Shown here in pieces: positions 30,185 through 53,041 of a stretch of DNA of 64,000 nucleotides. Both the position numbers and the translations under genes were made by a program. Origin of the DNA: Savitreella phatthalungensis. Taxonomy: Eukaryota. Each line of letters begins with the position of its first letter. The first letter of the stretch is position 1. The notes under the pieces were generated by a model, which had not been told where the DNA came from, did not search any database, and saw only the letters and a list, made by a program, of their open reading frames with translations. The stretch is from the NCBI GenBank assembly GCA_051599415.1, contig AP039713.1, positions 1 to 64,000 on the forward strand. The letters are read 5' to 3'.

Positions 30185-30675
30185 ATGACCGAAAACATCA
30201 CCAACTTCAACACTGTTGATCTCTTCGCCGAGACCGACGACACACAGCCGAAGAACTACATCCGTACGCCTGCCCTTTCGCGAAATCTCAGACTACGCAT
30301 CGCACGTATCCATCGTGTACTAACCCGTCCTTCCATGCACAGATATCCGCATTCAGCAGCGAAATGGTCGCAAAACCCTGACCACTGTACAGGGTGTGCC
30401 TACGGAGTTTGACCAGAAGCGCATTCTGAAGGCCTTAAAGAAGGATTTCGCCTGCAATGGCACGATCGTTAAGGATGCCGAGATGGGCGAGGTAATTCAG
30501 CTTCAAGGCGACCAGCGCCTAAAGGTAAGCGAGTTCCTCACGACTGAGCTGCCCATCGCCAAGAAGACCATCAAGATTCACGGGTAAGGATCTAATCTAT
30601 TCGGTGCTGCTCGACCGCAACACAAGACTGGCACAAATCGAATAAAACTGTATTACTGACACGGATAGTTTCTGA
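30185..30675 (+). CDS. SUI1: Translation initiation factor eIF1; 3 exons (30185-30263, 30343-30583, 30669-30675)
   Basis: Spliced YIHIRIQQRNGRKTLTTVQG...FACNG...LQGDQR...IKIHGF; introns carry GT donors, TACTAAC/TACTGAC branch sites and AG acceptors. Confidence 0.96.
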
Positions 30676-33718: not shown

Positions 33719-35136
33719 GTTGACGGATACTTTCTACCGACGACATCGCTCAGCTATTTATACCGCGAGTTGCGTGACCGAGAACACCGGGAATCAAATG
33801 AGGCCCATCGTGTCTGCAAACGACGAGAGCGGACAGACCGAGAATCACTATTTCTCGAGGTCTACAATTTCATGGCAATCCATTTCGGTGCGATCTTCAG
33901 TGTCTGTATGAGCTGCCCCGTTCAATGTAAACAAATCGTCTTTTGAGATGCTTCCAATTTTGGCCACCAAAGTAACACTTGTCGTCCGATGTCAGCTGGA
34001 TTCCCTTCGGAGTGAATTAAATTAGTGCGCGACGGATCGAGTGTCCAAAACAGTGACTAGATCCTTTTGGCAGATTCCTATCAGTCTTTGGAATGCTCAA
34101 GAGAGATTCCATCATCCGGGAATTCCAAAAACGATGACTTGAGCGGTCTTCTAGGCTCAATCGGGAATTTGTTGAGGACGGTCATCTGACAGGTACACAG
34201 TCTGCTTCTGTCCATCTTGCCTTGTTCTCTTGAGATCGGCGATCGAGCACACTAATAACGCGACTATTCGAGGAATCGGATTCAAAAGCCAAAAGGATCC
34301 TCGACTATGGAGCATTCAACTGAAGGAAACTTTCGAAGCGCAGTGATCGTCGGATGAGAACACCGGGAACCGAGCTATTGTAAATCAACTGAATGGGCGT
34401 CTTGCATATTGACAGGAATGCTGCATCGGCGTTAGTGGTGATCAAAACTTGGTACAAAGCATACCGAGACACTCGGCCGCGCGCAGCAGCAGCTTACGTG
34501 CGAAGCCGTACGACCATTTCTTACGCTCTTTTGTGTATTTCAGGCAAGAGCTGCATGTGGTTGCAATCCTTCTCGGTGAGCTAGAACACAATATCAGACT
34601 GACTCCCGTATTGCTCATAATCACGAGACGTGTCATCAGGGCCCGATGTTAAGATTTGACTGGCCTGAGCGGAATCAGTGTACCGCGGAGGAGCAAACGG
34701 ACCTTGGTGACCCTCGCCGAAAGCTGGCCTTGTCAGGGTGGGCAAAAGTAAAAAGGAAATGGACGAAAGATCCCAGTCCCAGTGTGCCCCGATCATCATA
34801 GGAAATTGCATCCACAGTATACGTACGTGTATATAGTCGAAGCATTCAATTTGATCTGATTAATTCAATCCATATATTTTATATATAAATTATATATATC
34901 ATGAATGCACGGGGCGATTCTCCACTATTCCACATGTGACCTACACACATACACGATATATCGATCATGAAAACTAGGACACGTCTGTGCTAGCGTTAGA
35001 TCAAGGTAAAGCCACGATCCAACGAAGATATATTTTATCGCCGAGGAAGGAGACCTGTCGCTCGTGACGCCGGTCAAGCAGGTGGCGGATCGAAAAGATT
35101 GATAGTCCAGGGCGCTGTCCTACAGATAGTTGCAAC

Positions 35137-36954
35137 ATGAGTTCAGCCAGGATCGAAGCTATATTGCAAAGCGACGTGAGAATCCTAACCCGAGACTCAT
35201 TGGTCAACAAGGCTAACTCTGCTCAAGTCAAGCACACGGATTCTATCAGAGCGTGCAAAACAGGGAATCAGTGCGCTGCGAGAGCTGAGCTCCTTTCTTC
35301 GCAAGCGCGCATCGCTGGAAGATCAGTATGCCAAGGATGCGCAGCGCCTACGCCGGCAAGCGATCGAGAGCTTTGCCAAAGCTGAAGTCAAGCAAGGTTC
35401 ATTCGGAAAATGCATGCGCAGTGTATTGATGATCGAGGATCGCGCGATGGAGAATACGGCTGGCTTCGCCGGCTACCTTCATGAATGCGCAGAAGAATGT
35501 CAAGAAGTTGCACGCGAGCTCGAGAAGTCGCGCAAGACAATCAAAGAAGCATCAACGCGGGACGATCGACAGGTGCTAGACGACGAGTCTGCCAGAGACA
35601 AAGCAATCGCAAAGTATGAATCTGTAGCAGAGGAGTGGGCTCGTCTCAGTCGAGGCGACCCTGCTTCACGGAAAACGTCGTTTGCATTTAAGTCCAATGC
35701 GAAGCCTCCGAGCTCAAAGCAAATAGATGATGTCCGCGCGCGACTCGATGCCGCGCAAGCCGATCGGAGCGCGCGCACAGCACATGCTGAGCGAGCTCGC
35801 GATGGCTTGCAAAGAACCCTTAGACCACGCCACACGGCTGCGTGGCAAGACCTCATCTCTCAGATCGATTCATACATTTCCGCACAGCTCGCTCGCTACG
35901 GCCTTCAGCTCGAGGAGCAGCATTTGAAAGCGGCGCAGGTAATATGTCCGACAGATTCTGAACACGGACCAGGCGTGCGCGACCATATCAAAATGATAGA
36001 CGACTCGATCGATCTGACGCAGTTCATCCTCAGTCAAGGATCATCCCTGGCTATTCCCCTGGAGCCGGTCAGCCAGCGAAACGGACCTGCTCAGCTCGCC
36101 CCTGCCACACGAACCGCTTCCAGTCCCGATCGGCGATCGCCGTTCTGCATGCCGCTCAGTGACCTCATCGAGCTCGAAGGCAATCCTCGTGGTATTCCCT
36201 ATCTCGTCGAATTCCTGATAGGCCATATCGATGCACACTACCTCGGCATACAGGGGCTCTATCGTATCTCTGCCCCACTTCCAGCCATACAGTCGATACA
36301 CGATGACCTGCCGATAGGTGAGAACGCGTTTTCTTACTTTGCAGCTATGTCCAAAATTGCTAACGTCGAACTTACAGGCCCGCTGATTCCGCAAGATCTA
36401 CCGTCAGAGTTGCTGCGTGACCCGCATGTCGGAGCCAGCCTGCTGAAGCAATATTTCCGCGAACTGCCTGATCTCCTAATCCCAGCCGAGCATTGCGGCA
36501 ACTTTGCTCAGACCTCGCGTAAGCCCTATTCAACCTAGGCCGAGAACCAGCCACTGACTTGTCTCCAAGACATCGCCGATGAGAGACAAAGACGCATCGC
36601 GCTCCACCAGGCGATCAATAATCTTCCGGACGCCAACTATTCGACGCTTCGTTCACTCATCCAGCATCTAGCCAAGTAAGCCTGCAGTCATCACACGAGC
36701 ACCGCACAAGCGCAAATCTTAACCGGATACACAGGGTGATCAAGTTGTCGGAGCAAAATTTGATGACAGCCGATAACCTGGCGATCATCTGGGGCCCAAC
36801 TCTGCTAGGCGACCGCAATCTTAATGATGCAGGTGAGGAGGAAGGATGATCAAATTTCACTATGGAGGGCGACTAACTTTCAGCAGAGGCCTTTTCAGTG
36901 GTTATTGAGACGGCCATTCAGAACTGCGGTCTCATATTTGAGGACGAGGAATAA
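35137..36954 (+). CDS. F-BAR + RhoGAP protein (Rgd1/Rga7-like), multi-exon
   Basis: Spliced N-terminus ILQSD/..LRELSSFLRKRASLEDQY (FCH); GLYRIS, SLLKQYFRELPD, NLMTADNLAIIWGPTL. Confidence 0.88.
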
Positions 36955-37029
36955 AGCGGATTCAATGGAGCCAGTGCACTCGATCTCGAGTGTGGGCTAG
37001 TCGAATGGGGAGAGGATGAAATAGCTCAA

Positions 37030-37941
37030 TTAGGCAAGGTCAGCGTTCTGGGAGCCGGCTGTTGTATGGTTAGCACAATGATCTAACGAGATGCGACAGA
37101 TTACATACAGTTAACACCATTGATCCACCATCCCTGAAGCGGAACCGCAGCCTCTGGGATATTCTGGTGCCCAGTGAGAAGCCAAAGTCCGAATACGCCC
37201 TTTGCGAGGACGTCGAGGACAGCATAGAATCCAATCTCCTGGTCCACTGAGAGAATGGCGGCGCCCTCGGACACACCCCAAGCAATAGGATACAGCGTCC
37301 AAAGGATAATTGTGAAGAAAGCGACAGAATCGTAAAGCTTGGCGACCTTTTGTCCCCGCGTGTTGGCAGAGACGCGGCCGGAGATCACGAGAATGTAAAT
37401 GATGTAGAGGAAGAAGATGCAAGCGATCGCATACCAGCCCCAGCTGTATTTGCGGTTCGCCTCGAGCGAGGCAAACAGGCCAGTGACGATCATCCCGAGG
37501 TCGGCAAAGACGAGGGCGATGAGATCGATGCCGCTCAGACCGGCCAGGAGGGCCAAGTCAAGCAGCAGGAGAGGAGTGGTAATGGTCCAGTCGATGTAGC
37601 GGGCGTAGAAGATTTGACGGTAGTGATCATGACCCACACTGGTGAACGTTGTGCCGGCATGCGTCGCCATTGCGTAGTAAGACATGGCGGCGGTCAGCGT
37701 GATGAAGGAAGTTATGTAGTGGAAAAGGCGCAGCTCTTTTTGCACACGCAGCGCTAGCACCACGTAGCTAGCAGTCGCAAGCAGCATCAGCACAAAGACT
37801 ACCCAGAAGATGTTGTAGCCCCTACAATCGAAATGTTAGCACACAGAAGGTTCGCTTGAGATAAGCAACGACGTACGTCTTGGTAGCCATCTCCTGAACA
37901 ATCGGGAACGGCAGCGAAGGCTTGACAGTCATGCTCGACAT
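37030..37941 (-). CDS. Fungal microbial-type rhodopsin (opsin), 3 exons
   Basis: YARYIDWTITTPLLLLDL, LYPIAWGVSEG, VLDVLAKGVFG with retinal Lys; short introns near both ends. Confidence 0.95.
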
Positions 37942-38908
37942 CGTAAGTTGAATAGAAGAGGTGTCTGAGGAGCAGAATTGTGAACGTTTGGTCGTCTTAT
38001 GACCACAGGTGGGTCGATCGCTCAGGTTTACGTCGACGCGCGAAACGCTAGCGATGGTCGATGACGCATAGTTGGTCATTCGGGCGAAACTGAAGCTGGC
38101 AGCTGTGAATTCAAACAATCGTGGCTATGCTTATTCGAAAAGATCTGCTAATGAATTCTATTCGCTCTATTTTATTGCTGACTCGGGTAGCTTATTGAGC
38201 TGGTACTATTGCGGTTGCAACCATTATATATGATGAAGCTCCGTGAAAGTAATCTGTTAATTCTTCGAAAACTCGAGCGTTGGGAGTACTATTTTCAATT
38301 AATTCACCCGACAGATCACCGGCGATTGGGGAAGCACATGGAACTGGGATTGGCTCTCTCTCTTCAAACGCCCAAGGATCCTGACGCAGGCTCCAAATGT
38401 TTTTGAGCCCATGCGTATACCTGATCGTAATAGGATCGACCTCTAATCCGAGCCGAGCTACGATTACATGAGCCTCGGAAGTCACCTGCCCCACAAGCCT
38501 GACACAAGTTTTACCTCGATTAATTGATATCATATTAAACCAGACCAACGAAACACAGGCCGTATGGATCTACACCCAGCTGAAAATGCGGCTGGCATCA
38601 GTCCACCCGGGCTCCGTCGCATATGCCACCTGTGGGCCATCGATGCACATGCATTAGCGCCCATGCACAACATGGCACATCAATACTGGCACGAGCACCG
38701 GGCACTAGTGCCGTAGTTTAGCCACACCAGCCATAATCTGAATTCAGAGGTCGTCTCCACGCGTGCATACCGAAGCGTTTTCAAAGCTAGGTGTTAGCGA
38801 AGAACTATGCGACCATTTCGCAGCCAGGACCAAGATATTCTTCAGCTTTGAACGCTCGACATAACGATCGGAGGCGACGCAAATCGTGACATTGAGAGAC
38901 AAATCGAG

Positions 38909-39424
38909 ATGCTGCCAACGTACGGAGATTCGGGTACAACATTTGTTCTGATCGATCGACTGACAGACTCATCAGATTCCGCGCCGCCCTGCAGCGCAAC
39001 ATTGGCGGACGACGCCTGATGTCGTCTAATGCATTTACACAAGAACGCGACGCGGTAACTCACCACGCGGCTGGTGCGGCGTACGAACAATCTCTTGAAG
39101 CGATTGACGAAGCACGACAGCTGACATGCCAGTGACCTTTGGCGCAAGATCTCGATCTACGTTGCCATTCCCGCACTCATCATTGGGTCCGTCAACGCAT
39201 GGAACCTATATTCCGCTCATCAGGAGCACCTCGCGCACATGGAGCATAATGAGGATGAAGATCATCCGGAATATCCTTACCAGAACATTCGCACAAAGAA
39301 CTTCTTTTGGGGCAATGTGAGTTCGACGTATTTGCGGCTAATGCATCGATCAATACTAACTTTCTGTCAGGGCGACAAGACTCTGTTTTGGAATGACAGC
39401 GTGAACACGCACAAGGATGCTTAG
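38909..39424 (+). CDS. COX13: Cytochrome c oxidase subunit VIa, 4 exons
   Basis: Spliced ..HHAAGAADLWRKISIYVAIPAL..EYPYQNIRTKNFFWGNGDKTLFWN. Confidence 0.95.
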
Positions 39425-39999
39425 GTGCCATCATTCGTCCTTATATGGAGGGGCAGTATCACCGGCCGCCCATGTGCGCATTGCCACGGCAGCCGACACC
39501 CATTTAGCCTAGCAATGAGATGCCGTTGTTCTGCTTCTTGCAGCGTATCATTGAAACGAATCGCTTGATGGCATGCCTGCTGAGCACATCTTTCGCGCAG
39601 AAACGTAGGTAAAAGCGACACCGATGTTATCATGCGTTGTTCAATCACCTTTGCACAGATGTGCCGCATTACGGATAGGTCCCGTGTCCACCCTTGAGCA
39701 GCATGCGTTACGAACATGCGGCCCTCTCTCAACTCGGCGTACAGGCCGATGCGGTGTAATTGTTCGAGTGCGGCGTGCCATATATCAGTCTCCATCGTGA
39801 ACTCACCAAGATCTATGGGATGGCATATTCGCGAGAAATTGACCATTGGTATCTGTTCTTCGAGTTTGATTCGCTCAGACGCAGCATGCTGGTCGACTAG
39901 TAGCACGCGCCGCGTTTTGAGATCGACAATTACGATGACTTTGCAATCAAATTGGCCCACCAGCCGGTGAGCTTGGTCGATGCGCGTTCCAGCGGCCAT
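39421..39999 (-). CDS. MLH3: MutL C-terminal endonuclease domain only (MLH3-like)
   Basis: DQHAASERIKLE, ACHQAIRFND, CRLPWQCAHGRP; 192 aa; in-frame TGA 5 codons upstream of the ATG. Confidence 0.8.
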   Translation of the reverse strand: MAAGTRIDQAHRLVGQFDCKVIVIVDLKTRRVLLVDQHAASERIKLEEQIPMVNFSRICHPIDLGEFTMETDIWHAALEQLHRIGLYAELREGRMFVTHAAQGWTRDLSVMRHICAKVIEQRMITSVSLLPTFLRERCAQQACHQAIRFNDTLQEAEQRHLIARLNGCRLPWQCAHGRPVILPLHIRTNDGT

Positions 40000-40200
40000 C
40001 GAATCATCAACACGTCAAGCGATTCTTCGCATATCCACATATCTTGTTGCCATTTGTTTTTTTATTGATTTCTTATCGATCAGCACTCTGGATTGTGGAT
40101 TAAATAGAGCCTAGCACAGCAACACCAACGTCACCTAGCACATTGATCATAAATAAACATCAGCTACGTCTGCTTTAGCACGTAAAAGGGGCCGAGCGAC

Positions 40201-41051
40201 ATGGCAAGCGCAATCAGTGGTGTACGAACAGCACTCTCGTTATCGCCATGCGTCGACGAAGCAGATCGAGCACTTGCACACACTGGAATCTTCGACGATC
40301 TCGCCTATTTCGAGCATCTCTTCCGGAACTTAAAGATCAGCTATCAAGAAGAGGAAACGCGCGAGCGATATTTGAAGGAATTGTACTCCCTGGCAATTGA
40401 CAGTGACCATGATGCGATTTCACAGCAAGGCAAGATATGACGCGGTACTCATGCAACTCGCAAGGCTAACAGCCAACAGAAACAGCTAATCAGGACTTGA
40501 AGGCAATGCTTCGAGCATCCAAAGATCACTGCAACGCTCTCCGCGTGGACCTTGCCAGGGTACTGAAAGAGATCTCCAAGAGTACGCCTGTCCACGACCA
40601 ACAAACAGAAGACTGACCTCCAGGCTCCGCAAGACTCCAGGTCGCCATTGACAAGCAGGATCACTTCTGTTGCGACATTGCAGACTTGCATGCTTCTGGT
40701 GCCAGCTTGAGGCATCTTAAGGATGGCAGAGAGCAGGTAAGGATGTCCGTCCTACGAGTGAAAAATGTCTGATTGTTTTCCCAGCAATGCAGCTTGCAAT
40801 CTTTGTCGCACAGGACGACAGAACTTCAAGCTAGAACTTTTGCAAAACGTGGCGACATCACTGCTGTGCGCAAATGCGTGACCGAGCAAAGGGCTTGTCT
40901 TGAAGTGCTAATGACCGCTACTGCAGATGCTGATCAACGGGGGCGTTTGGAATCCCTACCATTTGGGCCCCGCATTCTGCACTCGAACAACTCGACTTTA
41001 CCTGGCAGATATTACCAAGGACTATCGGGATGTTTATCGTTGCTCATGTAG
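40201..41051 (+). CDS. Kinetochore Sos7/Kre28-like coiled-coil protein, 4 exons
   Basis: DLAYFEHLFRNLKISYQEEETRERYL resembles the Sos7 motif; three ~45-50-nt introns give one continuous frame. Confidence 0.7.
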
Positions 41052-41632
41052 TTCGAGCAGGGGTGCGGGACAGTCGTGGCATTACATACCACTTCGATTA
41101 AATGCGAATGAAGGTCGGCATGCGCTGCTTCGAGTTCCTAGCTAGCCTCAGTGATCGGAAATGTTGCGACAAATCGTCACCTGCACGACCTCTCCGAGTC
41201 TGCAAAGCGCAAATTATTTCTCTCGCAAAAGGTTGGCGTACTTTAATTAAATCCCGGTATAGCGGTGACGCTTCTCTGCCTCAGGATTGTAGCACAAAGA
41301 ACATCGGGAAATGACTGGAAACGGACCCACAAATTGTAGCATTCAGCATACTAGTCAATGTGACGTCCTTCTATGGGCGGTCAACGAGTCGGGAAATACT
41401 ATTTAATTTATCAGCTTGTCTTACTTGATCTGGCGATCATTTGTCTTTGTCTGCACTCAACGACATGTGAGGGGCCATGATATGTTGAGTCCTCCATTTC
41501 GCAATCACTATCGCATGGCTTGACAACAATAGCAAGCATGAGACTTGTCAAGGACCATTTCTGTGACCTTATAGAGGGGCATCGCGCAATGCTTCTACCT
41601 ACCCACTGGAGGATACGTAGGAGGACGTCAAC

Positions 41633-42316
41633 ATGAAGCTCACACCCACCAAAGCAACAAGAGGAGTGAGCAAAACGAATAATGCTCCGTTGAAAATCAT
41701 ATTGTCAGATGGCAGAAGCGACACCTATATCGGATTCGATGCTCATACAGGTAATCGTCGTGCGACTCGTCTTAACGCGTTTTTCCTCTACATGGAAGAA
41801 CTACGATGCGATCCAGCGCGAGCCGCCACCTATGCTGCGATTCTAGCCGAATTTCCCGATTGTAAGGTAACGGAAGCGCTTGCTCGATCGTGGCGCAGAA
41901 TGTCCGGCGAAGAGCAGAAAGCATATCACATAAAATCGGATATCGCGAAGTTCAGCAGCTCGATTCCAACACAGGGAAACCGGACACTACAACGTCACAG
42001 CCGGGCTCCTATGTTCAAGCCGCCCACTGAGCTCAGGACGGCTAGGAAGAGAATGCCGGACCTAGTTCACGAAGGGCCTTGTCCAGTGTATGCTCCACAG
42101 ATCGACTATTACAGCCCCGCGATCTATGCGCGAGCCGTTCAGCCCGAGATCGCAACTGCGATCGGCTGCACGACGGGCATCGCAAGCAATTCAGCCATTC
42201 CAGCATGGCTTGCTTACAGCATGTCACCCTCGCTGGACTACACAACCATTGAGCTGTCGCCGCCTATTCTTGCTTCGTCGATGCAGACTTGGCAAGAAAC
42301 CGAGGACTTTGCTTGA
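41633..42316 (+). CDS. HMG-box transcription factor, candidate mating-type gene (matMc/matPc-like)
   Basis: RRATRLNAFFLYMEELR...KVTEALARSWRRMSGEEQKAYH single divergent HMG box; context next to COX13 and a homeodomain gene. Confidence 0.8.
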   Translation: MKLTPTKATRGVSKTNNAPLKIILSDGRSDTYIGFDAHTGNRRATRLNAFFLYMEELRCDPARAATYAAILAEFPDCKVTEALARSWRRMSGEEQKAYHIKSDIAKFSSSIPTQGNRTLQRHSRAPMFKPPTELRTARKRMPDLVHEGPCPVYAPQIDYYSPAIYARAVQPEIATAIGCTTGIASNSAIPAWLAYSMSPSLDYTTIELSPPILASSMQTWQETEDFA

Positions 42317-42577
42317 GCCACAACCATCTTCTAAATCGGTTATGACACGGGCCGAAGTTACCGCTTTGACGACGGCACGCGTAATTGCTGCAAATCCAAT
42401 CACCGAATCACATCACATCATTGTACATCTTGACCAGAGAATTTGTATAGCTCATAGTAATCTTCTGTATAGTTGTTGTCTTGCATCAGTCGAAATGTCT
42501 TGATAGTCATGATGTTTCACAAATGAGGCTTGAAAAGCTCGTCCGCATTGACGTTTTAAGAAGGAAATCTTCAAGAA

Positions 42578-43204
42578 TCAACCTGTCAGCGCCGGACCAT
42601 TACTCCCATTTGTGCATTTGTGCGAGCCCCGGTTGACCTCATGATCGAGCCTCGTACCTTCGCCACGTACAGTATGTGTATCCTCGTCCCGACCATAAGC
42701 ATGTTGGACTGCGGATTGGAGGCCTTCATTGGACACGATTTGCATACATTGGCGAGCTATGTCTGCGTCGATCCCATGCGTACGGTAAAGGTTTGTGGAA
42801 TTTGAAGAAGCTGTTACGTGTTGCGACTGGTCGTGCGTCGTGACAACGCCGGCTAATGCATTGGGTTTGCCCGCGGCAGTAAAATCATCGGAAATCAAGA
42901 GCGCGCCAGCAGAACTGATGAAGAGTCGGTGTGTGATGCTGGCCTGGCGAAAAGCAGAGCGACGCAAAGATGGAAAAATCCGATAAGATTGGATTATGCA
43001 ATGAAATCTTCGCCCAAGTGCTGCCAAGTGGCTGGACTCGCCTCGGCAACCAAAGATTGTGGGCTTTGGCAAGAGATCTTCATCATGACGCCAGCTGCAG
43101 CGGACGCCCGCTGAGAACGAGGCCAAATGCTCCACATCTAAAGTACCGCCGACGCGAGGTGGCGCGCAACTTTTCAGGTGCCAGTTCCGAGATCCTGGAC
43201 GCAT
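42578..43204 (-). CDS. Orphan ORF inside the candidate MAT region
   Basis: 208-aa ATG ORF; no recognised domain. Confidence 0.3.
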   Translation of the reverse strand: MRPGSRNWHLKSCAPPRVGGTLDVEHLASFSAGVRCSWRHDEDLLPKPTIFGCRGESSHLAALGRRFHCIIQSYRIFPSLRRSAFRQASITHRLFISSAGALLISDDFTAAGKPNALAGVVTTHDQSQHVTASSNSTNLYRTHGIDADIARQCMQIVSNEGLQSAVQHAYGRDEDTHTVRGEGTRLDHEVNRGSHKCTNGSNGPALTG

Positions 43205-43425
43205 GTCAGAGTTGATGGTCGTTCAGGTCCTCGTTGAGTCAAATACACAAAAGCCCATCGAGTCTCACCTCATTGGTCATCAATCGCTCTGATCGTGCGT
43301 TAGACTCAGTTTCGAGGTCACTGGGGCAATAATGCACAGCTGGTCATATCAGAGCTACTGTACGTCTGTGTACATGTTCGCACAAGCATTTCCAAGGGAG
43401 AGTTCATTTAAGCCCAATTCGCGAG

Positions 43426-44100
43426 GTACACGACGCCGCCACTCCCGCAATCACCCGGCCTACGTATGACGAGATGATAGCCCTGTATGGAGCTGTCAAC
43501 TAGTATCGTTCTGTGCTAGGGCCTGGTGATGGTGATATCTGGCATGCTGTCTGTGCGCAGCATGCTGCGTCCTCTTGTACCCCAACCAGCCTGCCATGTC
43601 AGCAGAGTTGTGGTCTGTATCACTTATAGCACAGTCGGCGTCACTGCCTAGATTGCTTCTAGTAGGCCTTCTGTGTCTGTTTTTACTCGTCTGTATGTCG
43701 CGGCCGGTCGATGGCCCGGGTCAATTGTATACGGTTTGTACACGACGCTGTCACTTCCGCAATCACTCGGTCTACGTATGACAAGATAGTAGCCCCATGA
43801 GGAGCTGTCAAATAGTATTGTTCTGTGCTAGGTCCTGGTATTGGTGATATCTGGCACGCTGTCTCCATGCGGCGTGCTACGTTCTCTTGTACCCTACCAA
43901 CCTGCCACGTCAGCAGAGTTGTGGTATGTATCAGTTATAGCATGCTCAGCGTCACTGCCTCGACCATCTCTTGTAGTTCCTCCGTGATTGTTTGTACTCG
44001 TTCGCATTTTTCCGTGTCATTCGGTGGACTCCGTCTTTGTCCTCCTGTGTTGTCTGGTTTGTGTCCGTGTTGTTTCGTCCGTCGCTTTCGGGTCCTGCGG
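43426..44100 (+). repeat. Two tandem degenerate copies of a repeat unit (period 312 bp); left arm
   Basis: GTACACGACGC..GCAATCAC..TACGTATGAC..GGAGCTGTCAA..TTCTGTGCTAGG at 43426 and 43738. Confidence 0.93.
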
Positions 44101-44684
44101 TCGTCCTCCGCGACAGCATTCTGTAATTGTGAAAAATGAGACAAATTGCTCGATAGTTGCCGGGGATGTTATTTTCAGCATCAACTTTGTTTGTTAGTAG
44201 TTCTCTGCCTTCAGTCGGGCTTGATACAGTGTAGAGCCTCAGCAAGTGTACTGAGCAAGATGTGGTCGTTTGTGTTCGCCCCTGTCTTCTTATTGTTTTC
44301 AAACATGACCATCTGAGCGCGACATCCCTGTATGATTTCAAAGCAAGCTGGTGATAATGTGCAGTCTATACAAGTATACTGAGTAAAACATGATTGTGTC
44401 TGATTTCCGATGGTTTCCTGTTGTTTCCAAAGATATCCATCTGACTGAGACAACACTACAATAGTCAAATCATCGTGCGGATATTTGCGAAAATGGCAGC
44501 AATAGGTGATTATACGAGTAATTATACGAGTAGTAGTTCATGCGGCGATGCCCGTCACTGACACATTCGTGCGGGAAATCGTCCATGCTAATCACGGAGA
44601 GCGGCAAATTTAGAAATTGCTAGTCAAGGAATTGCTAATTTTGACAACTTGGCTGATACAAGCTGCACAATCACTTTTTGATGG

Positions 44685-45850
44685 AACAGGGCTCAAGGGC
44701 GACGGACGAAGCGACACAGACATTACCCAGACCACACAGGAGGACTCAGCGGGGCCCATCAAAGGACACAAACGGACACAAACGCTTCTGAACGAGTACA
44801 AACAGACACAGAAGGACTACAACAGGTCGGTCTGGGCAGTGGTTCCAATCTTTGATAGACCTGACACATAACACGAGTCTACTGACGTGGCTGGCTGCTG
44901 ATATGGCTGGTCGCTGCTGACGTGGCAGGTTGGATCTAGCTACAAGAAGACATGGCATGCCATATGAGAACGGTGTGCATGATATAACCAACGCCAGGAA
45001 CTAGCACAGAACGATACTATTCGACAGCTCCACACAGGGCTACCATCTCGTCTTACGTAGACCGAGTGATTGCAGAAGTAACAGCGTTGTGTGCGAGTAT
45101 ATACGATCGACCCGGATATCTTAGCGGACATGACACACATAGGAGCTGAAGTTTTGAGTGCACCCATGTCGCCACTGATCTAGCCATGCAGACCACTCAT
45201 ATACAATGCTACAGGCCTTGACTTTGCTGATATGACAAATTGCACGACTAAGCCTCAGCGCCCATGATTGCAATATGCTACACACAGATGATGTGCATGA
45301 TATTACTCAACATCCAGCTTAGAAGAATCATGCGACAGCTCCAGCATGGGTCCACAACCTTGTCACACACAGCATCAGGTGTTTGCGGAAGTGACAGCGT
45401 TGTGTACAATTAATCCTGTAACAGCAGCATGGACAACCAAATCGTGTTGCAGAAGACAATCGTCAAACCAGAGGGCAACAGACAAAGGGAAAAGAATACA
45501 CACAGGACGACTCATATGGAGCTCACTAAACAACCAAAATAAATCCAAATTTTTATGAACAAAGACAAACAGACACAGGAGGACTGCAATAGATCAAGCA
45601 AAGTCAGACACCAGGATCCGTAAAAATGCTGTAGCTGATACATGCCTCAACTCTGCTGACATGACAGGTTGCACATTGGAACCTAAGCATCAGAGGACGC
45701 AGCAGGTCGTCTACAGGAGGCATGCAAGACATCACCAACACCAGGATTTCCAGTAGCACAGAACAATACTACCTGACAGCTCTTTAAGGCGCTACAATCA
45801 TTATATACGTATCCCCGAGTGATTGTCGGAATGATGGCATTGTAAACAAT
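44685..45850 (-). repeat. Two inverted degenerate copies (~44685-45130, ~45560-45850) plus a fragment (~45380-45410); right arm
   Basis: CTAGCACAGAACGATACTATTCGACAGCTCC at 45001 and TAGCACAGAACAATACT at ~45754 are reverse complements of the left-arm unit. Confidence 0.9.
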
Positions 45851-45976
45851 TGTATAGCACCAGGCTAGACAACCTGACCGGTCTGTCACGACCGGTATGA
45901 CAACAATATGAGAAGAACTGCACAAAAGTTATCACAAATAGTCAGAAGGAGTTTGAGAAGTGATATCTCGCTACTT

Positions 45977-46591
45977 TCAAACACCTGACGCGGCATGTGC
46001 AGGCCGGATCGCCTTGCACAACAGAGCGTGCCGGCTTGTATCCGGATGCCGGACTAGACTAGCCACGGGAGCGCGAGCCAGTTCACCGACGAATCTTCTG
46101 CCGTCCGCAGAACGTCGACGGGCGTTGATGAACCAGGTATTCAGTTGGGCGTAGGACATACCGGATTGCTCCACTAGCCTCGCTTTGACACTGCTCGAAG
46201 GATACGGATGGTCCAAGTGCTCGAGATACCACTCCTTCAGCAAGAGAACCCTCATCTTAACATCATGGTCCACTGCCAGAACATTTTTGCGTGTCTTTCG
46301 CGCTCGAATTTTCTCAGTCCGATTTTTCGAGCACAGAGCCACCACGCGCATGCAGGTCTCGCGCATCGCGAGGACTTCTGTGATAGACGCTTTCCGTATC
46401 CATGCCGTCAGCTGTGGACGATTCATCGTGATTCTCAGCTGTGTCTCCAAGGTTTCAATTCTTTGAATGTCCATTTCATCGCTCGAAACATTGAGTGCAT
46501 CGTGTAGATCGCCCACGACATCCGAGGTGTCCCCTAGCATCTTAGATGCTACAATCAGCGTCCCAAGTCCCCTTTTGTGCTGCTGTTCCAT
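45977..46591 (-). CDS. TALE-class homeodomain protein, candidate mating-type gene (matPi/HD1-like)
   Basis: LKEWYLEHLDHPYPS...QLNTWFINARRR; start taken at ATG 46591 (alternative 46693); TATATATA at ~46665. Confidence 0.85.
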   Translation of the reverse strand: MEQQHKRGLGTLIVASKMLGDTSDVVGDLHDALNVSSDEMDIQRIETLETQLRITMNRPQLTAWIRKASITEVLAMRETCMRVVALCSKNRTEKIRARKTRKNVLAVDHDVKMRVLLLKEWYLEHLDHPYPSSSVKARLVEQSGMSYAQLNTWFINARRRSADGRRFVGELARAPVASLVRHPDTSRHALLCKAIRPAHAASGV

Positions 46592-46710
46592 CCTGCGCAC
46601 GGACCCATATGCATCATCCGGCTTTGTAGTACTGTAAGTCGGCCCTGAGCTGTATTCGTAATTGTATATATATGTGCAAACATGATTGTTCATAAAATAA
46701 GCTCTTTGTC

Positions 46711-47787
46711 TCACTCGGATTCATCCCAGAAAGACCGCTTATGTATCATCGCGAGGATAAGGAGCAACGGCAAATGGAGCAGGCTCGCAAAGAATAGTTT
46801 CCGTGCGGCTCTATCGCGAAAGCTCTCATCCCCATGGAAGGGTCTTGAGGCCTGCCAGAAGCGCAAGGCCTGGAGTATCAGATAGCCGTTGACGATAGAC
46901 GAATCGATCAAGAACCACGGATGACAGATATCGGCATGAACCAGAGCCCAACTTATTGGTGCGCAGGCGATGGCGTAGCGTAATGAGACGCGGCTATTGA
47001 TGCCCGGATTTGTGACCGATGCCATCACATAGCCCGCACGCGCATATTCACCACGTATGTACCACGCAAGACTGTTGAAGTGAGGAAACTGCCAAGCATA
47101 TAGCAGACCAGCGAGATAGAGTGCTCCGATGTTGTCAAGCGAGAAAGGGTCATGGGACGAAGCTGCGAACCATCCGATGAGCGGAGGAATTGCGCCAACG
47201 ATCGCACCGGCCCACGTGTTGAGGATTGAGACGCGCTTGAGCGGTGTGTAGATTCCTGCGTAGAGGACAATGTTGGCAAGTCCGAGGCCTGCACAAACAG
47301 GATTGATCATGAAAAGCGTCACTGTGCCGGCGACGCCTGCCGCCGCGCCTATCGCAAAAGCCTGGTCCGGATGCACCGCTCCTCGTACGAGCGGTCGATT
47401 GCGAGTCCGAGACATTTGTGAGTCGAAGGGAGGCTCAAGCCACATGTTGAAGGCATTTGCACTGCTGGAGCAAAGTACTGTGCCGGCCGTCAAGAAGCTC
47501 AAGGTCGTCAAAGGAGCGTCGGCTGCAAATGGACAAATCGCATAGGACGCCATGGTGGAAAGGACCACGAGAGCTGTCAGTCGAGGCTTCGAAAGCTCTG
47601 TAAGTGTTGAGATGGATGGGCGGCCGCGACGACGGCTGTCCGGGGACACCGTCTTTGAAGCTCGATCATTGGTGGTAAGAGCGGCCGTCTGCGGATGATA
47701 CACACTGCGAACTGTTATGCGTAGGCAACCACGCAAGGCAGAAGTCTGGATACCAACACAACGCGTTATCAGACGACGAGCAAGCAT
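46711..47787 (-). CDS. COX10: Protoheme IX farnesyltransferase (heme O synthase)
   Basis: LSKPRLT, DSQMSRTRNRPLVRG, YTPLKR..NTWAGAIVGAIPPLIGW, WQFPHFN. Confidence 0.97.
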   Translation of the reverse strand: MLARRLITRCVGIQTSALRGCLRITVRSVYHPQTAALTTNDRASKTVSPDSRRRGRPSISTLTELSKPRLTALVVLSTMASYAICPFAADAPLTTLSFLTAGTVLCSSSANAFNMWLEPPFDSQMSRTRNRPLVRGAVHPDQAFAIGAAAGVAGTVTLFMINPVCAGLGLANIVLYAGIYTPLKRVSILNTWAGAIVGAIPPLIGWFAASSHDPFSLDNIGALYLAGLLYAWQFPHFNSLAWYIRGEYARAGYVMASVTNPGINSRVSLRYAIACAPISWALVHADICHPWFLIDSSIVNGYLILQALRFWQASRPFHGDESFRDRAARKLFFASLLHLPLLLILAMIHKRSFWDESE

Positions 47788-47831
47788 GTGCAAAATCCTT
47801 TTGACGTGCGTCGTTGTGCTACAATTGAAAT

Positions 47832-49430
47832 TTATTGCTTGCCGGAAGTGTGGATATGAGCTGACTCTGATCTTGCACGCCGGCCAATTGGGGTCACGCT
47901 ACTCCTATTTGATACAGATTTGAAGCGCGAAGACGATGGAGGACGGGTCGGGCCAACTGATGGAGATGAAAGGCCGAAGTCGCTGGTCAGTGGACGGGAG
48001 ACATTCGTGAGATGCTTGTTGATGAGCTTTGCGTCCTCTGGCGAGGCGAACGGATCGACGAGCGTGTCCAATTCGATTGGCTTTGACACCGCACGATCAC
48101 GACCGCGACCTCTGCCGTGTGAAGTTGCGAGGATCAGGGATTCGCCCGTGCCACTGAGTGGAATTGCAAGACCGGCCCTTGGACGAGGTGTTTGATCCGT
48201 CTCATCCCAGATTGGCTCCTGAATGAGCTCCTCGAGCACGTCCTCGAGTGTGATGACACCAATGGGATCGAGCTCAGCCATCTCCGCCTCTGTCCAGAGT
48301 CTCGTAGGCACAGAACGCTCTTCGAGTACGGTCTCGTTGGAGGAGCGCGAATCCGTGGTACGCGTGCGGGCAACTTCGACCGGCGGCTCCGGGGAGGGCG
48401 ATGGCACCACAACGGCTAGGTGCGACCGACCTTCTTGGAAGATATTGAGAATATCAAACAAAGGTAGATCGTCCTGCACTGATGGGATGTGGTTGATGTT
48501 GATGTGCCGTAGGGGAAGCTCATCATCGGGGTCGACTAGGAGGAGGTTCTTGGCGAGCAGACAGCCTGTTATGCGCATATCACCTCTGACAGTCTGGTAG
48601 ATCGGGATACGGCTATGCCCACGCTCTGCAATACTGCTCATGGTTTCACGATCGAGCTTCGCGTCATGGGGGAGCATGAAAACGTTCTCGATAGAAGTCA
48701 TCGAATCACGCACACGCTTCTCCTGCAAGTCCAGTGCACCACGCATGATCGTGACTGCATCTATGTTCAGATCTCCACCGTGAGCAGCTTGTTGAGAGTG
48801 GAAATCTATGAGCTCCTTGAGCTCGGCTCGACGATAAATCATGCCATGCGTCTCTCCGAGCATGAGATCAAGCAGCTTGGCTATCGGCCAACTGATGACG
48901 TAGAGCAGAAGTATCAGACCACGGACGGGTATAGCCATAGCTGCACCTATTCTCAAGCCATGTGTCGAGCACACCGCTTGCGGAATGATTTCGCTGAAGA
49001 TGACAATCATTACAGTCGACAAGACGATCGAGACTGGGCCAGAAGAGAACAGCCGCTCTGACAAGATCGGTAGCGTCTCATTGACGACCACGTTCATCAA
49101 CAGCAGGGACACAAGCAGGAGATGTCCCTTGCGGCGAATCGGCAGGATTTTTGTCGCGTGACGCTTCTGTTCCGCAGTGCCAGATTGCGCCAGAACGTGT
49201 AATTGAGTCTCGTCAAGAGACATCAAGCCGAGCGTCAAACCCGCCGTGACGCCACTGACAGCGACGAGCATGAGGATAGCGATCACATATCCGACAATCT
49301 GCGCGGGTGAAAGACCCTCAGCCAGACGGCGTGGAAGAAGTAGTTTTGTGTCTACAGGCTGCGCATTCACACAATTGATGAGGCCTAGTAGCGCGACCAG
49401 GCGCGATGTTATTGAGCGATCATGGCGCAT
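47832..49430 (-). CDS. MAM3: CNNM/DUF21-CBS protein
   Basis: AGLTLGLMSLD, HLLLVSLLLMN..NETLP, GHSRIPIY, FQEGRSHLAVV, GVITLEDVLEELIQE. Confidence 0.93.
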   Translation of the reverse strand: MRHDRSITSRLVALLGLINCVNAQPVDTKLLLPRRLAEGLSPAQIVGYVIAILMLVAVSGVTAGLTLGLMSLDETQLHVLAQSGTAEQKRHATKILPIRRKGHLLLVSLLLMNVVVNETLPILSERLFSSGPVSIVLSTVMIVIFSEIIPQAVCSTHGLRIGAAMAIPVRGLILLLYVISWPIAKLLDLMLGETHGMIYRRAELKELIDFHSQQAAHGGDLNIDAVTIMRGALDLQEKRVRDSMTSIENVFMLPHDAKLDRETMSSIAERGHSRIPIYQTVRGDMRITGCLLAKNLLLVDPDDELPLRHININHIPSVQDDLPLFDILNIFQEGRSHLAVVVPSPSPEPPVEVARTRTTDSRSSNETVLEERSVPTRLWTEAEMAELDPIGVITLEDVLEELIQEPIWDETDQTPRPRAGLAIPLSGTGESLILATSHGRGRGRDRAVSKPIELDTLVDPFASPEDAKLINKHLTNVSRPLTSDFGLSSPSVGPTRPPSSSRFKSVSNRSSVTPIGRRARSESAHIHTSGKQ

Positions 49431-49723
49431 AAACTTGGTGATGACTCGGAAGGGCGCGATCGTCGATCGAGGAGTAGAATCTATCTCTTACTTAAGACCC
49501 CGGCTCCGGCTAAAGGTTTCGAGATACAGTAGATTGAAACATTGCATCAAAGCCGGGCGTGCGGAATTCGTCGAAACGACGATCGTCTGTCGCGAATCGC
49601 GTGCATTGGGAGAATAGAATTCGAATGTCCTCTACCGAAGTCACTGCTCGGTCGACCGGCACACCACAGCACAAAGGAACACGTAAACCGCACGCTTTTT
49701 ACGCCTCACACAACCCGGCGAAT

Positions 49724-50037
49724 ATGAGTGAGCAGCTCAAGGATTTCGCCGAGCTGCCGAAAGAGCTTGCCAGAGATGGCGGAGCGTGAGTTATTATCGC
49801 CCAGATATCTGTCTATGGACCAAGGCTAATCCTTAGCTTTCTAAAACGTTGCCAGAAGCCAAACAAGCGCGAGTTCATTGGCATCGCTCAGGCCGTCGGG
49901 GTCGGTTTCCTCGTCATGGGTTTCGTCGGCTTTCTCGTCAAGCTTGTACACATTCCAATCAATAATGTTCTTGGTATCGTCCTAACATCCCATTTGCTAC
50001 AGATCCAGCTGACCATTCCTAAGTTGGTTCATCATAG
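49724..50037 (+). CDS. SSS1: Sec61 gamma subunit, 3 exons
   Basis: Spliced ..[42 protein letters not shown]. Confidence 0.93.
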
Positions 50038-50137
50038 AGCAGAAACGACGGGTGTCCACAAAAGGGATGTCCTTCACAGCTTCAGACCATGGGAAATTAC
50101 AAGACGAGCTCTAGAATGTAATTGTCTGTCGGATCAT

Positions 50138-51682
50138 TCAGAACAAGATGTACACGAGACAGATGAGAGGTGGCCCAGTCATGAGTGAGAACCAAAAGAA
50201 ACTGTTGCCGAGTGTGGTGCGATGTCTGAAGAACTTCGATCGAGAGATCATGATGATAGGAATCTGAAGCATCTGAATGAAGACAAAGTAGAGGCGAATC
50301 TTCTTTGTCATGCACGCCATCACAAGCTCGTGCACCAGTGATGAGAGGACAAATGTAACCAGCGTGGCTTGCTCCTTGCGCAACTGGAGTGCAGAGATCG
50401 AGGAATGATAGACATGTCTTAGCAGGAATCGATGAACCGGTACATTCCAGTCTCTGGCGAATTCGTCAAATGAGATGCTGTTCCACCAGTCGTTGTAGAA
50501 ATTACGGTCAGCGAAGCGCGTCAACTCCGCGAACCACTGCAGTATGCACTCGAAGGTCAGGTAGAAGAACAGAAGGTAGAGAGAGATCAATGGGAAAGCC
50601 ATGTCGAGCATCATCCAGGGCATCTCCTCCAGCTTTTGCCGCGACGTCATAAGGTCCAGGTTTAGCGGTATGATTGGCAACATATAGTGCTCCACCATCA
50701 TCGACATCAAGCCAAAGCATCCAAGCGCTGCCACCGTCTTCTCGAGGACGAAACTCCAGCGAATGCGCTCTGTACGTGGGTAGCTTATATCATAGACCAA
50801 ACTCGGGACCAGGAGATAATCCACAAAATTGCTAAGAGTGAGATTCTGGGGATATGTCACACCATCAAGTGTCAACTCGTCGTCGATTTCTTTGATCTCC
50901 GTCAGAAGTTCGGTCTCATGAGAATTCTTCTCGGACATGTTGTTATACTTGAGCGCATCGAGCTTGTGAACCACCTCGAGGTGCTTCGCTAGTGTCTGAC
51001 GACGCTTATAAAGCTCTGACAAATAGCCGAGGTATTGCGCGTAAGAGTGCTGCTTCATCAGCATAACGCAGCAATGGAGGATGATCACAACTGACTGGAT
51101 CCATTGCCATTCATAGACCCATGACCTGTAGATGATTGTCGCAAGGTAAAGGGTCTGCCAGGCCTGTTGAATGTACCATCCAGTAGTTTCCCAGGAGACA
51201 CCTCGGAGCACTGCCACCTGTAGGAAGTAACAGAAAACTGATGCAACGACCATGATAGCATCCGTTGCAGCCAGATCCCAGATATTTAGAGCATACATGA
51301 CGGCGAGCCTTCCACCGAAGAAGTGACCTGTAGCGCGCCAGTGTTGAAACAATGTCTTAACGACGAGGGTCCCAAGACCAATCCAAAATAGAGTGAAGAA
51401 GCCGTGAAAGCTGCTGTTGTGCTCCTGATTATGGCGATCAAAGGCAGTGTTCGCCGGCTTGAATTTGACATCGCGGCTCATCTTACGTCTTGTAGCGGAG
51501 AAAGAAGCCGCCATCTTGTCATTCAGCCGCGCCTCTTTCTCCGGGGTGAAGTCGCGCGCATCCTTGGTTGGTTTCCGTGAGACCAACGGACGTCTGACCA
51601 CTTGGGCGCTCCCGTCATTGCCTTCCAGCCGGCACTCATCTGTAACAGCCGACATGCTGGGTTCTGAAGCGGTATCAGTCAC
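50138..51682 (-). CDS. Sterol O-acyltransferase (MBOAT, Are1/Are2 family)
   Basis: MKQHSY, AELTRFADRNFYNDWWN, WNVPVHRFL, SSLVHE; first ATG at 51655. Confidence 0.95.
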   Translation of the reverse strand: MTDTASEPSMSAVTDECRLEGNDGSAQVVRRPLVSRKPTKDARDFTPEKEARLNDKMAASFSATRRKMSRDVKFKPANTAFDRHNQEHNSSFHGFFTLFWIGLGTLVVKTLFQHWRATGHFFGGRLAVMYALNIWDLAATDAIMVVASVFCYFLQVAVLRGVSWETTGWYIQQAWQTLYLATIIYRSWVYEWQWIQSVVIILHCCVMLMKQHSYAQYLGYLSELYKRRQTLAKHLEVVHKLDALKYNNMSEKNSHETELLTEIKEIDDELTLDGVTYPQNLTLSNFVDYLLVPSLVYDISYPRTERIRWSFVLEKTVAALGCFGLMSMMVEHYMLPIIPLNLDLMTSRQKLEEMPWMMLDMAFPLISLYLLFFYLTFECILQWFAELTRFADRNFYNDWWNSISFDEFARDWNVPVHRFLLRHVYHSSISALQLRKEQATLVTFVLSSLVHELVMACMTKKIRLYFVFIQMLQIPIIMISRSKFFRHRTTLGNSFFWFSLMTGPPLICLVYILF

Positions 51683-53041
51683 GAACTTCGAAAGACGCTC
51701 GTGATAGAACTTCGCTCTTGTTACGAAAGCTTCATGTCAATGCGCGGTCGCGGTCGGCAATCGAAGGCAGAAACATCGCGGCAATGCTGTCATCGCAAGA
51801 TCGGGACGTGTGATCGACCGGCATTATCTTCATGCTGTAGACGCCTCTCAGATCTCATCGAGCTAGATTCTTGACGATTGCTTCGAAAGCTATACATAGA
51901 GAAATTTAGCAGGCGAGCGCCCATTGAAGGATTCGCAGCTCGCCAGGACTTTCCTCCTGATCGTTCTGAATTGGTACGAATTCACCCAATGAGCTACAGT
52001 GCGTATAGATTTGTCCGGGAGTCGGAAAGATTGAAGTCCGAATGACATGATAGTCTTGAATGACAGCATTTCGTATTGCTCATACTAATCAAGCCCAAAG
52101 GATTTTTGTGGAGTAAAAGCCGAGGAAAGAATTACAGGACCAGTCTGGACAGTCGTTTCGATCAGCGCCACAAAGTCTGCGGCATGTCCGCCAATGATCA
52201 TTCTACAATAGCGCCACTCATGCCTTCTACGTATGAGCACAATACATACCCGATTTCACAAGGGTTTGATGTTATGAATACTGATTCTGGCTGCGCAATC
52301 AGCACATCTGACATTTTTTTTTCTTGTAAGTCCTACTCATCTGTCATACACTGCAATGGCGACTCTCGCGTCGAGTTATTGACTCTGATCTTGCAGATTC
52401 TGTCATCTCATTGCGCCAGCGATGACGGGGACTCGAGTGCATTCACTGATGCACAATTTGACTTTGTTATCTGCCCTCGACTTCAAAATTGCCGGTTTGC
52501 TCATTGTATAGCCCGTTCTTCGGGCACGAAAATACCTACCAGGCCACGGCACAAGACAACCTAAGCACGAGCGACTAGTCGAAACCGACAGGCAAGATGC
52601 CTGCACTCTTGCGACCTTGCGACTCTAATGAGCAACATAGTCCGTTGCGGAGATAGTGTACGGGAGAACCCGAACGACGGCTGCCTGGATTTTATTATTA
52701 CTTGTATGCACGATTCAATTGGACTATTTATGAAAGAGTCACATCTTCAGTGAGTGCCCATAGTGGATCGTGGATTCTTCAATTGGTCAGGAAGCCTGGC
52801 ACGCTCAAATATTGGAGATCAATATAGTCGGTACAGACCTTGGGAACTCGTATACGATCTGATCGCCGCTGATTCAGCTGAACGGGCGTCTTCTGAAGCG
52901 CCGTTCACACTCACTTCATCTCGTGTCCATCGGCGTGTGCAGTGACCATCGGAAAGCCTAGCGGTCTTCTAGCTCTTTCCACTGCTGCTTTGCGATCCTA
53001 GCTTCGGTGTCCGTTCAGGAGTGGCTCGCGCGGTTGACGGA

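Follow-up and report, generated by a model that had tools for sequence, protein, structure and literature searches.

A probable mating-type locus with an atypical HMG-box gene and a TALE homeodomain gene near a chromosome end of Savitreella phatthalungensis

The DNA considered here, referred to as the window, comprises the first 64,000 nucleotides (nt) of contig AP039713.1 of Savitreella phatthalungensis (assembly GCA_051599415.1); the contig that carries the proteins of the window is 207,365 bp long. Between conserved genes, a gene for a divergent HMG-box protein and a gene for a three-amino-acid-loop-extension (TALE) homeodomain protein converge on each other. The organism is an ascomycete with a small genome and with introns, and resembles the Taphrinomycotina most; this is probably its mating-type (MAT) locus, with two short transcription-factor genes between conserved flanks. 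The reading is made mainly because of synteny, and in addition because of the class of the two genes. A preliminary description of this DNA had proposed a telomere-linked MAT locus at this place, and the fate of its individual claims is given below where the relevant results are described.

The HMG-box gene and the homeodomain gene

41633-42316, + strand: divergent HMG-box gene, 227 amino acids (aa), box at about residues 44-108 (41762-41956)
45977-46591, - strand: TALE homeodomain gene, 204 aa, homeodomain at about 46109-46290

Both open reading frames (ORFs) are present as the preliminary description had given them, and their stop codons are 3,660 nt apart, in agreement with its convergent pair separated by about 3.7 kb. 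Regarding the HMG-box protein, the match to the Pfam family HMG_box (PF00505) reaches 18.2 bits (E 0.0034), where the cut-off is 25.4, and that to HMG_box_2 (PF09011) reaches 19.2 bits, where the cut-off is 22.4. The best single PDB match is the HMG domain of LEF-1 (E 0.014), which has an LNAFxLYM and a W...S.EEQ stretch in common with the protein; relative to LEF-1, six additional residues follow helix 1. A phmmer search of 1.84 billion representatives at E<=0.001 returned three proteins, namely the query, P0005 (324 aa, 54% identity over residues 16-121, E 1e-23) and P0006 (291 aa, 51% identity, E 2e-22). On HMG_box these two relatives reach 26.4 and 27.9 bits, and on HMG_box_2 they reach 24.4 and 27.0 bits, all above the cut-offs, by which the divergent HMG box of the preliminary description becomes firmer. 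The block conserved among the three proteins covers residues 20-107 in the numbering of the window protein, including a conserved N-terminal stretch (residues 20-35) ahead of the box, and the tails are unrelated. A profile of this domain retrieved eight PDB chains at E<=1, six of which are HMG boxes (LEF-1, 0.0037) and two are not. AlphaFold2 prediction on the three-sequence alignment gave a predicted local distance difference test (pLDDT) value of about 80-85 for residues 41-100. The helices of this model are at 43-59, 61-73, 79-89 and 92-108, with an additional helix or kink following helix 1, whereas single-sequence prediction of the whole protein gave a pLDDT of 35.7 and was unusable. In structural comparisons, HMG boxes fill the first 10 Foldseek rows at E 0.33-1.2, no row reaching E 0.001, and they likewise fill the first 12 rows of the VIA structure comparison (Z 4.1-6.2). 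We take the gene to be a real, atypical HMG-box gene, and the HMG-box fold predicted for its product is moderately supported.

The relationships of this protein are narrow. The alpha-box family MATalpha_HMGbox (PF04769) gave no match to the HMG ORF at E<=0.1, to the 131 stop-to-stop ORFs of >=40 aa in the 38-46 kb interval at E<=0.05, or to P0005 and P0006 at E<=1. Homologue searches with the protein brought up no Mc, MAT1-2-1 or a2 sequence, and a metagenome scan for the family gave nothing. Atlas neighbours named MATA-HMG were found at 0.88-0.89, below the 0.9 mark, and are a lead only. Its own frame is the best of six by codon score, if weakly, as is the own frame of the homeodomain gene (0.054 and 0.015 bits per codon, respectively). 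An ORF of 42 aa (41411-41539, - strand) lies 94 nt upstream of the HMG start codon on the opposite strand, in divergent orientation; it is a purely mechanical ORF. Prediction of a complex between its product (41414-41539) and the homeodomain protein gave a score of 0.00 and no verdict. Position and orientation are the criteria that others applied for calling matMi, according to excerpts of Almeida et al. (2015, PMC4313921) and of bioRxiv 10.1101/594028.

The other member of the pair is, by its sequence, an unambiguous TALE homeodomain gene. Pfam Homeobox_KN (PF05920) matches it with E 4e-17 and 62.2 bits against a cut-off of 24, and the alignment with MEIS2 spans the HPYPS loop and the WFINARRR helix 3, so that the PYP/WFINARRR homeodomain of the preliminary description stands. 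All 23 PDB sequence matches at E<=0.01 are homeodomains, with MEIS2 as the best (1.9e-11) and MATalpha2 at 0.0016-0.0036; 22 of them are named MEIS, PKNOX, TGIF, PBX, extradenticle or MATalpha2, which belong to the TALE class, and one is SIX1. The ORF extends to 46693 and would give 238 aa from its ATG, whereas the database form of 204 aa starts from the Met at 46591. A metagenome scan with this protein returned one unrelated 1.3-kb contig (L001) only. Both proteins are near-orphans, since each matched itself alone at default thresholds: the HMG protein in a word-indexed homologue search, and the homeodomain protein in an index of 5.8 billion proteins at E<=0.001.

Conserved flanks, the interval and the chromosome end

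30324-30584, + strand: SUI1 (eIF1), main exon (Pfam SUI1 1e-25; NCBIfam TIGR01160 5.5e-40)
30731-33718, - strand: ORF of 995 aa, no Pfam family even at E<=5
35189-36954, + strand: F-BAR (FCH) and RhoGAP gene with the architecture of rga7, spliced reading frame (FCH 1.1e-12; RhoGAP 2.4e-8)
37101-37787, - strand: opsin-like gene
38909-39424, + strand: COX13 (cytochrome c oxidase subunit VIa), spliced model of 4 exons, 117 aa (COX6A 5.5e-33)
39421-39999, - strand: MLH3-like ORF, 192 aa, MutL C-terminal domain only (MutL_C 1.9e-7; best PDB chains named MLH3, 5.2e-12)
40186-41051, + strand: Sos7-like kinetochore gene, spliced, 3' end inferred (Pfam Sos7 matches two neighbouring ORFs at 3.6e-5 and 0.013, in either case below the cut-off)
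42578-43204, - strand: doubtful ORF of 208 aa, no Pfam family and no usable Atlas match, codon score about zero
43426-45850, no strand: palindromic block of 2.4 kb with repeat units of about 312 nt
46711-47787, - strand: COX10 (heme o synthase; UbiA 1.1e-49; TIGR01473 266.7 bits against a cut-off of 210.3)
47832-49430, - strand: MAM3-type gene (CNNM 3.8e-31; CBS 1.5e-4)
about 49.8-50.2 kb, + strand: Sec61-gamma
50138-51655, - strand: MBOAT gene

The gene order is SUI1, the rga7-like gene, COX13, the MLH3 fragment and Sos7 on one side, followed by the HMG gene, the repeats and the homeodomain gene, and then COX10 and MAM3; other genes stand between SUI1 and the rga7-like gene and between the latter and COX13. 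No more than 11.1 kb separates the pair from any of SUI1, the rga7-type gene, COX13, the MLH3 fragment, COX10 and the MAM3-type gene, and the MLH3 fragment and the MAM3-type gene bracket the pair. SUI1 is 11.05 kb from the start of the HMG gene, as the 11 kb of the preliminary description had it. COX13, which that description had placed beside the pair, is indeed near, at 2.2 kb from the HMG gene, but two other genes stand between them. The CNNM and CBS protein is taken by us to be the counterpart of yeast Mam3. No further MutL match was found among the 131 ORFs of 38-46 kb, and the ATPase half is missing near the MLH3-like ORF because the Sos7-like gene begins 190 nt upstream on the other strand; the translation keeps DQHA..E....E-type and CAHGRP motifs. 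The fragment may point to an old breakpoint at the MAT border. On the other side, the COX10 stop lies 18-120 nt upstream of the homeodomain gene start on the same strand (46592-46713), and one contig of sequencing run X2 spans both genes. With this spacing, the promoter of the homeodomain gene must overlap COX10, or the gene is reached by read-through from COX10.

Profile scans were run on the 131 ORFs of the 38-46 kb interval, on a further 82 ORFs of the flanks and on the long ORFs of the window. SLA2, APN2 and NVJ2 were not found by these scans of window ORFs; the NVJ2 identity was sought for the 995-aa ORF next to SUI1. No other HMG or homeobox match appeared among the 131 ORFs of 38-46 kb, and the window has no tRNA genes or Rfam families. 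Four of the long ORFs (452-1066 aa), at 14057-17257 (+), 30731-33718 (-), 27766-29217 (-) and 2715-4073 (+), match no Pfam family at E<=0.001, which for two of the four is so even at E<=5, and each is best by codon usage in its own frame. The ORFs at 7701-9299, 17360-18958, 21643-23241 and 47832-49430 (CAP, aspartyl protease, SUR7 and CNNM) are each exactly 532 aa long, presumably by coincidence.

Two sequencing runs, X1 (a contig set of about 12.7 Mb) and X2, cover the window. The X2 contigs skip ten GT..AG stretches of 50-60 nt that X1 keeps, in the RhoGAP, opsin and COX13 genes, which are 10 of the 15 joints listed; X2, recorded as "DNA?", therefore behaves like complementary DNA. They define at least five short introns in the FCH and RhoGAP gene, whose first exon lies upstream of the intron at 35176-35227, and three GT..AG skips in COX13. 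They are also gapless over 40782-43622 and 45105-49785, both ORFs of the pair included, which is a weak hint that both genes are expressed, from contigs that cannot show strand, level or transcript ends. A further run, X3, has the same organism label and study as X1 and shares with positions 33500-53000 of the window one 54-nt piece, in the opsin gene, at 80% likeness. This organism label must therefore cover very different organisms.

The interval between the pair has a guanine-cytosine (GC) content of 0.46-0.52, the lowest of the region. Codon-usage scoring was uninformative for the 208-aa ORF at its left end. In the repeat block, about two units in + orientation occupy 43426-44100 and inverted copies, 69-83% alike, occupy 44687-45850; the left copies are near the majority form in the genome, and the inverted ones on the right are more diverged. 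The family is of high copy number, with summed X1 depth of 1925 and 725 in the bins of 43265-44566 compared with 46-62 in the flanks, and up to 24 X1 contigs carry variants of it. No credible Pfam family was found for ORFs in the block, no further copies occur elsewhere in the 64-kb window, and Tandem Repeats Finder did not report the 312-nt unit. Solo long terminal repeats, a satellite and a foldback element are candidates for the nature of the family. Regarding mating-type switching, no second copy of either protein was found in the window by tblastn. X1 depth over the HMG and homeodomain genes (46.3 and 48.8) is at the level of the flanks, and among the contigs listed one X1 contig covers each; depth does not equal copy number, and as a test for cassettes it is weak. 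Inverted repeats in 36-52 kb have arms of 45-152 nt within 43428-45811, that is, between the genes, and the remaining ones have arms of 20-36 nt, with no sizeable ones flanking either gene in that region. There is thus no sign of cassette or flip-flop switching, by a weak test.

63-320, no strand: telomere, (CCCTAA)n at 63-180, followed by degenerate CCCTCA/CACTCA units as far as about 320

The telomere repeat is of the TTAGGG type, and the pair is situated 41.5-46.4 kb from the CCCTAA tract, consistent with the earlier estimate of about 42-46 kb. The term "telomere-linked" stands for the position and for nothing beyond it, since housekeeping genes such as RPS4, SURF1, pyrophosphatase and SUI1 are among the genes filling the 41 kb from the telomere to the pair. 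For RPS4, the top PDB chains are within 2 bits of one another and do not discriminate as to the placement of the organism. Bases 1-62, ahead of the telomere repeats, resemble a leftover long-read adapter or barcode flank more than genomic sequence. A run of 27 C is found at about 559-585, followed by short CTGTCAAATGC-like repeats to about 1100.

Mating-type interpretation and its alternatives

Excerpts of the literature associate each of the six flanking genes with MAT. The genes sui1, rga7 and cox10 are called "MAT loci associated genes" of Taphrina deformans, Schizosaccharomyces pombe and Protomyces in an excerpt of Wang et al. (bioRxiv 10.1101/594028), and rga7 adjoins matMc/matMi in T. 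deformans and all Schizosaccharomyces in that of Almeida et al. (2015, PMC4313921). The proximity of sui1 to MAT is kept across the Ascomycota, as stated in part of an S. osmophilus preprint. In the excerpted text of Krassowski et al. (2019, PMC6692504), the ancestral Lipomyces MAT lies between SLA2/MAM3 and APN2/MLH3, MAM3 is given as a neighbor of the ancestral MAT site in Lipomyces doorenjongii, and SLA2-SUI1-CWC25 adjoins MAT in an Ogataea species. COX13 is mentioned together with APN2, SLA2 and "MAT locus" in snippets of many filamentous-ascomycete papers. In the Taphrinomycotina, a MAT locus is recognized by HMG-class and/or homeodomain genes beside sui1, rga7 and cox10, and here genes of both classes stand beside all three. 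Given a genome size of about 12.7 Mb, six MAT flank genes at no more than 11.1 kb from the pair would be far beyond chance. MAT proteins are usually near-orphans, and the near-orphan state of both proteins, their standing as the sole HMG and homeobox matches in 38-46 kb, the low GC content and the high-copy repeat are MAT-like traits.

Several points weigh against a MAT locus at this place. The HMG protein scores below the Pfam HMG_box cut-off, and any orthology of either protein to Mc, Pc or Pi would be drawn from domain class and position only. MAT gene pairs of S. pombe are divergent, and the genes here are convergent. Conserved flanks could outlive a MAT locus that has been relocated, and the gene searches were confined to the 64-kb window, so that a second MAT locus or an Mc gene elsewhere is conceivable. 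The Ste11-type TR-box motif is not enriched (11 matches against 6.8 expected, with 5 of 100 shuffles reaching 11). Finally, at E<=10 the homeodomain protein has two further matches, which are TALE proteins from Phialophora and Aspergillus (Pezizomycotina), and in that subphylum the TALE genes PAH5 and PAH6 are treated as ordinary developmental genes. These matches, the only named ones of the homeodomain protein in the database, together with the lack of a named MAT relative for either protein, speak for two unrelated regulators, an HMG protein specific to the lineage and a TALE protein like Cup9/PAH5, that came by chance to lie in a conserved block, the true MAT being elsewhere. We regard this as improbable. 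Unambiguous similarity to the Pezizomycotina proteins is restricted to the homeodomain (in one case the homeodomain only, 50% over 44 residues; in the other 26% over 151 residues, with clear similarity at the homeodomain), each of the six genes around the pair has been reported next to MAT in some group of ascomycetes, and three Taphrinomycotina markers in one 18-kb interval would be rare by chance in a genome of about 12.7 Mb.

If the locus is MAT, an HMG-class gene with a TALE gene fits a P idiomorph and a fused locus alike. We lean slightly towards a P-type set, composed of a Pc-like, weak HMG protein and a Pi-like homeodomain protein, as in the matP loci of Protomyces, which carry Pi and Pc (IMA Fungus 2021, PMC7980564). 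In an excerpt of Martin et al. (2010), S. pombe Pc is described as without significant HMG support and as not grouped with alpha1 domains, and more taphrinomycotinan examples are called for; the HMG protein described here is likewise an outlier among HMG boxes, which favors a Pc-like identity. By analogy with fission yeast, the HMG-type protein would, in haploid cells, activate the pheromone and receptor genes specific to the cell type, and the homeodomain protein would act after cell fusion, starting zygotic or meiotic development. Strains of the other type would, on the P-type reading, carry different genes between the same flanks. The preliminary description is therefore upheld for the MAT locus as such, which the synteny of SUI1, the rga7-type gene, COX10, MLH3 and MAM3 supports more strongly than its own arguments did, having drawn on part of this synteny only, and it is not supported in its fused Mc and Pi option, given that the HMG box is atypical and that Protomyces matP combines Pi with Pc.

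That fused M and P locus, of the Pneumocystis and T. deformans pattern, would make the organism a primary homothallic, with a diverged matMc as the HMG gene, matPi as the homeodomain gene, Pc lost and both functions in one haploid genome. It is unlikely, and its case is as follows. A locus with HMG (Mc) and homeobox (Pi) genes is proposed for Pneumocystis and T. deformans in an excerpt of PMC4313921, and rga7 stands on the HMG side here as it does beside matMc/matMi in T. deformans. LEF-1, the top PDB match, is a sequence-specific HMG box with the LNAFxLYM motif in common, the alpha-box family is unmatched at E<=0.1 among window ORFs and at E<=1 in the two relatives, and the 42-aa ORF is in a matMi-like position and orientation. 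Nevertheless, a canonical MATA_HMG box would be expected to match many HMG proteins, whereas this one matches two relatives only in 1.84 billion and falls under the Pfam cut-off, and the 42-aa ORF is mechanical and unsupported. A more elaborate form of the idea, in which a single non-switching locus in the ancestral ascomycete MAT neighborhood would have M and P functions by way of an Mc-like HMG gene that is very diverged, a homeodomain gene of the Pi kind and, perhaps, a small Mi-like ORF divergent from the HMG gene, and in which the palindromic block, of a high-copy and transcribed repeat, would act like S. pombe cenH, with local heterochromatin gating expression of the two genes, appears distinctly doubtful.

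An arrangement like that of budding yeasts, retained in an early-branching lineage, is very improbable. The homeodomain protein would then be alpha2-like and the HMG protein an accessory like Lipomyces HMGX, or a very diverged alpha1. The neighbors MLH3 and MAM3 match the ancestral MAT site of Lipomyces, whose MAT loci carry an extra HMG gene with no established function in the excerpt of PMC6692504, and MATalpha2 homeodomains are among the PDB matches (E 0.0016-0.0036). On the other hand, the linkage of rga7 and cox10 is reported for the Taphrinomycotina in the excerpt of bioRxiv 10.1101/594028, the Lipomyces telomere repeats quoted in that of PMC6692504 are not TTAGGG, no alpha-box match was obtained, and several multi-intron genes are nearby.

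Comparison with known loci and significance

Among described systems, the locus resembles Protomyces matP (matPi/matPc) in having one homeodomain and one HMG-class gene in a single locus, with sui1, rga7 and cox10 close by and no silent copies seen. In the window the genes are convergent, with the 2.4-kb repeat block between them, and the likeness drawn here is one of gene content. In Pneumocystis and T. deformans, matMc and matMi occur together with matPi, according to the excerpt of Almeida et al. (2015, PMC4313921). The window likewise carries an HMG gene and a homeobox gene on one molecule, with rga7 on the HMG side as in T. deformans, but Mc was found there by a recognizable HMG domain, whereas the box here is atypical and without a named relative, and no supported Mi is present. 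The gene classes (HMG-type Mc and Pc, TALE Pi), sui1 nearby and rga7 next to the locus are shared with S. pombe mat1, and a repeat element within the mating-type region recalls mat2-P/mat3-M with cenH. Unlike in S. pombe, the 64-kb window has no second gene copy, no extra X1 contig is listed, no homology boxes were recognized, and the repeat is located between two expressed-looking genes instead of between silent cassettes. With the ancestral MAT of Lipomyces (PMC6692504), the locus has in common MLH3 on one side and MAM3 on the other, and an extra HMG gene (HMGX) is found at MAT in some species there; it differs in lacking an a1, a2 or alpha1 set and in an MLH3 cut down to its C-terminal domain, and the window yielded neither SLA2 nor APN2.

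Finding a MAT locus here is an expected kind of result, to which the atypical HMG family and the co-occurrence of markers add moderate interest. The deep linkage of SUI1 to MAT is already in print. Flank markers that have been reported separately, namely those of fission yeasts and Taphrinales (sui1, rga7, cox10), of Lipomyces (MLH3, MAM3) and of filamentous ascomycetes (COX13), stand together in this window, and no published account of the combined set came up, although no dedicated literature search was made. This combination of the markers of three subphyla fits a single ancestral MAT neighborhood. With three members in 1.84 billion representatives, the HMG-box family that the HMG protein establishes is small and atypical, and this family bears on the old question of the identity of the fission-yeast Pc class. 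For the organism, a probable sex-determining locus has been located, both of whose MAT proteins are without named relatives, and the locus would permit isolates to be typed and the breeding system, outcrossing or selfing, to be settled.

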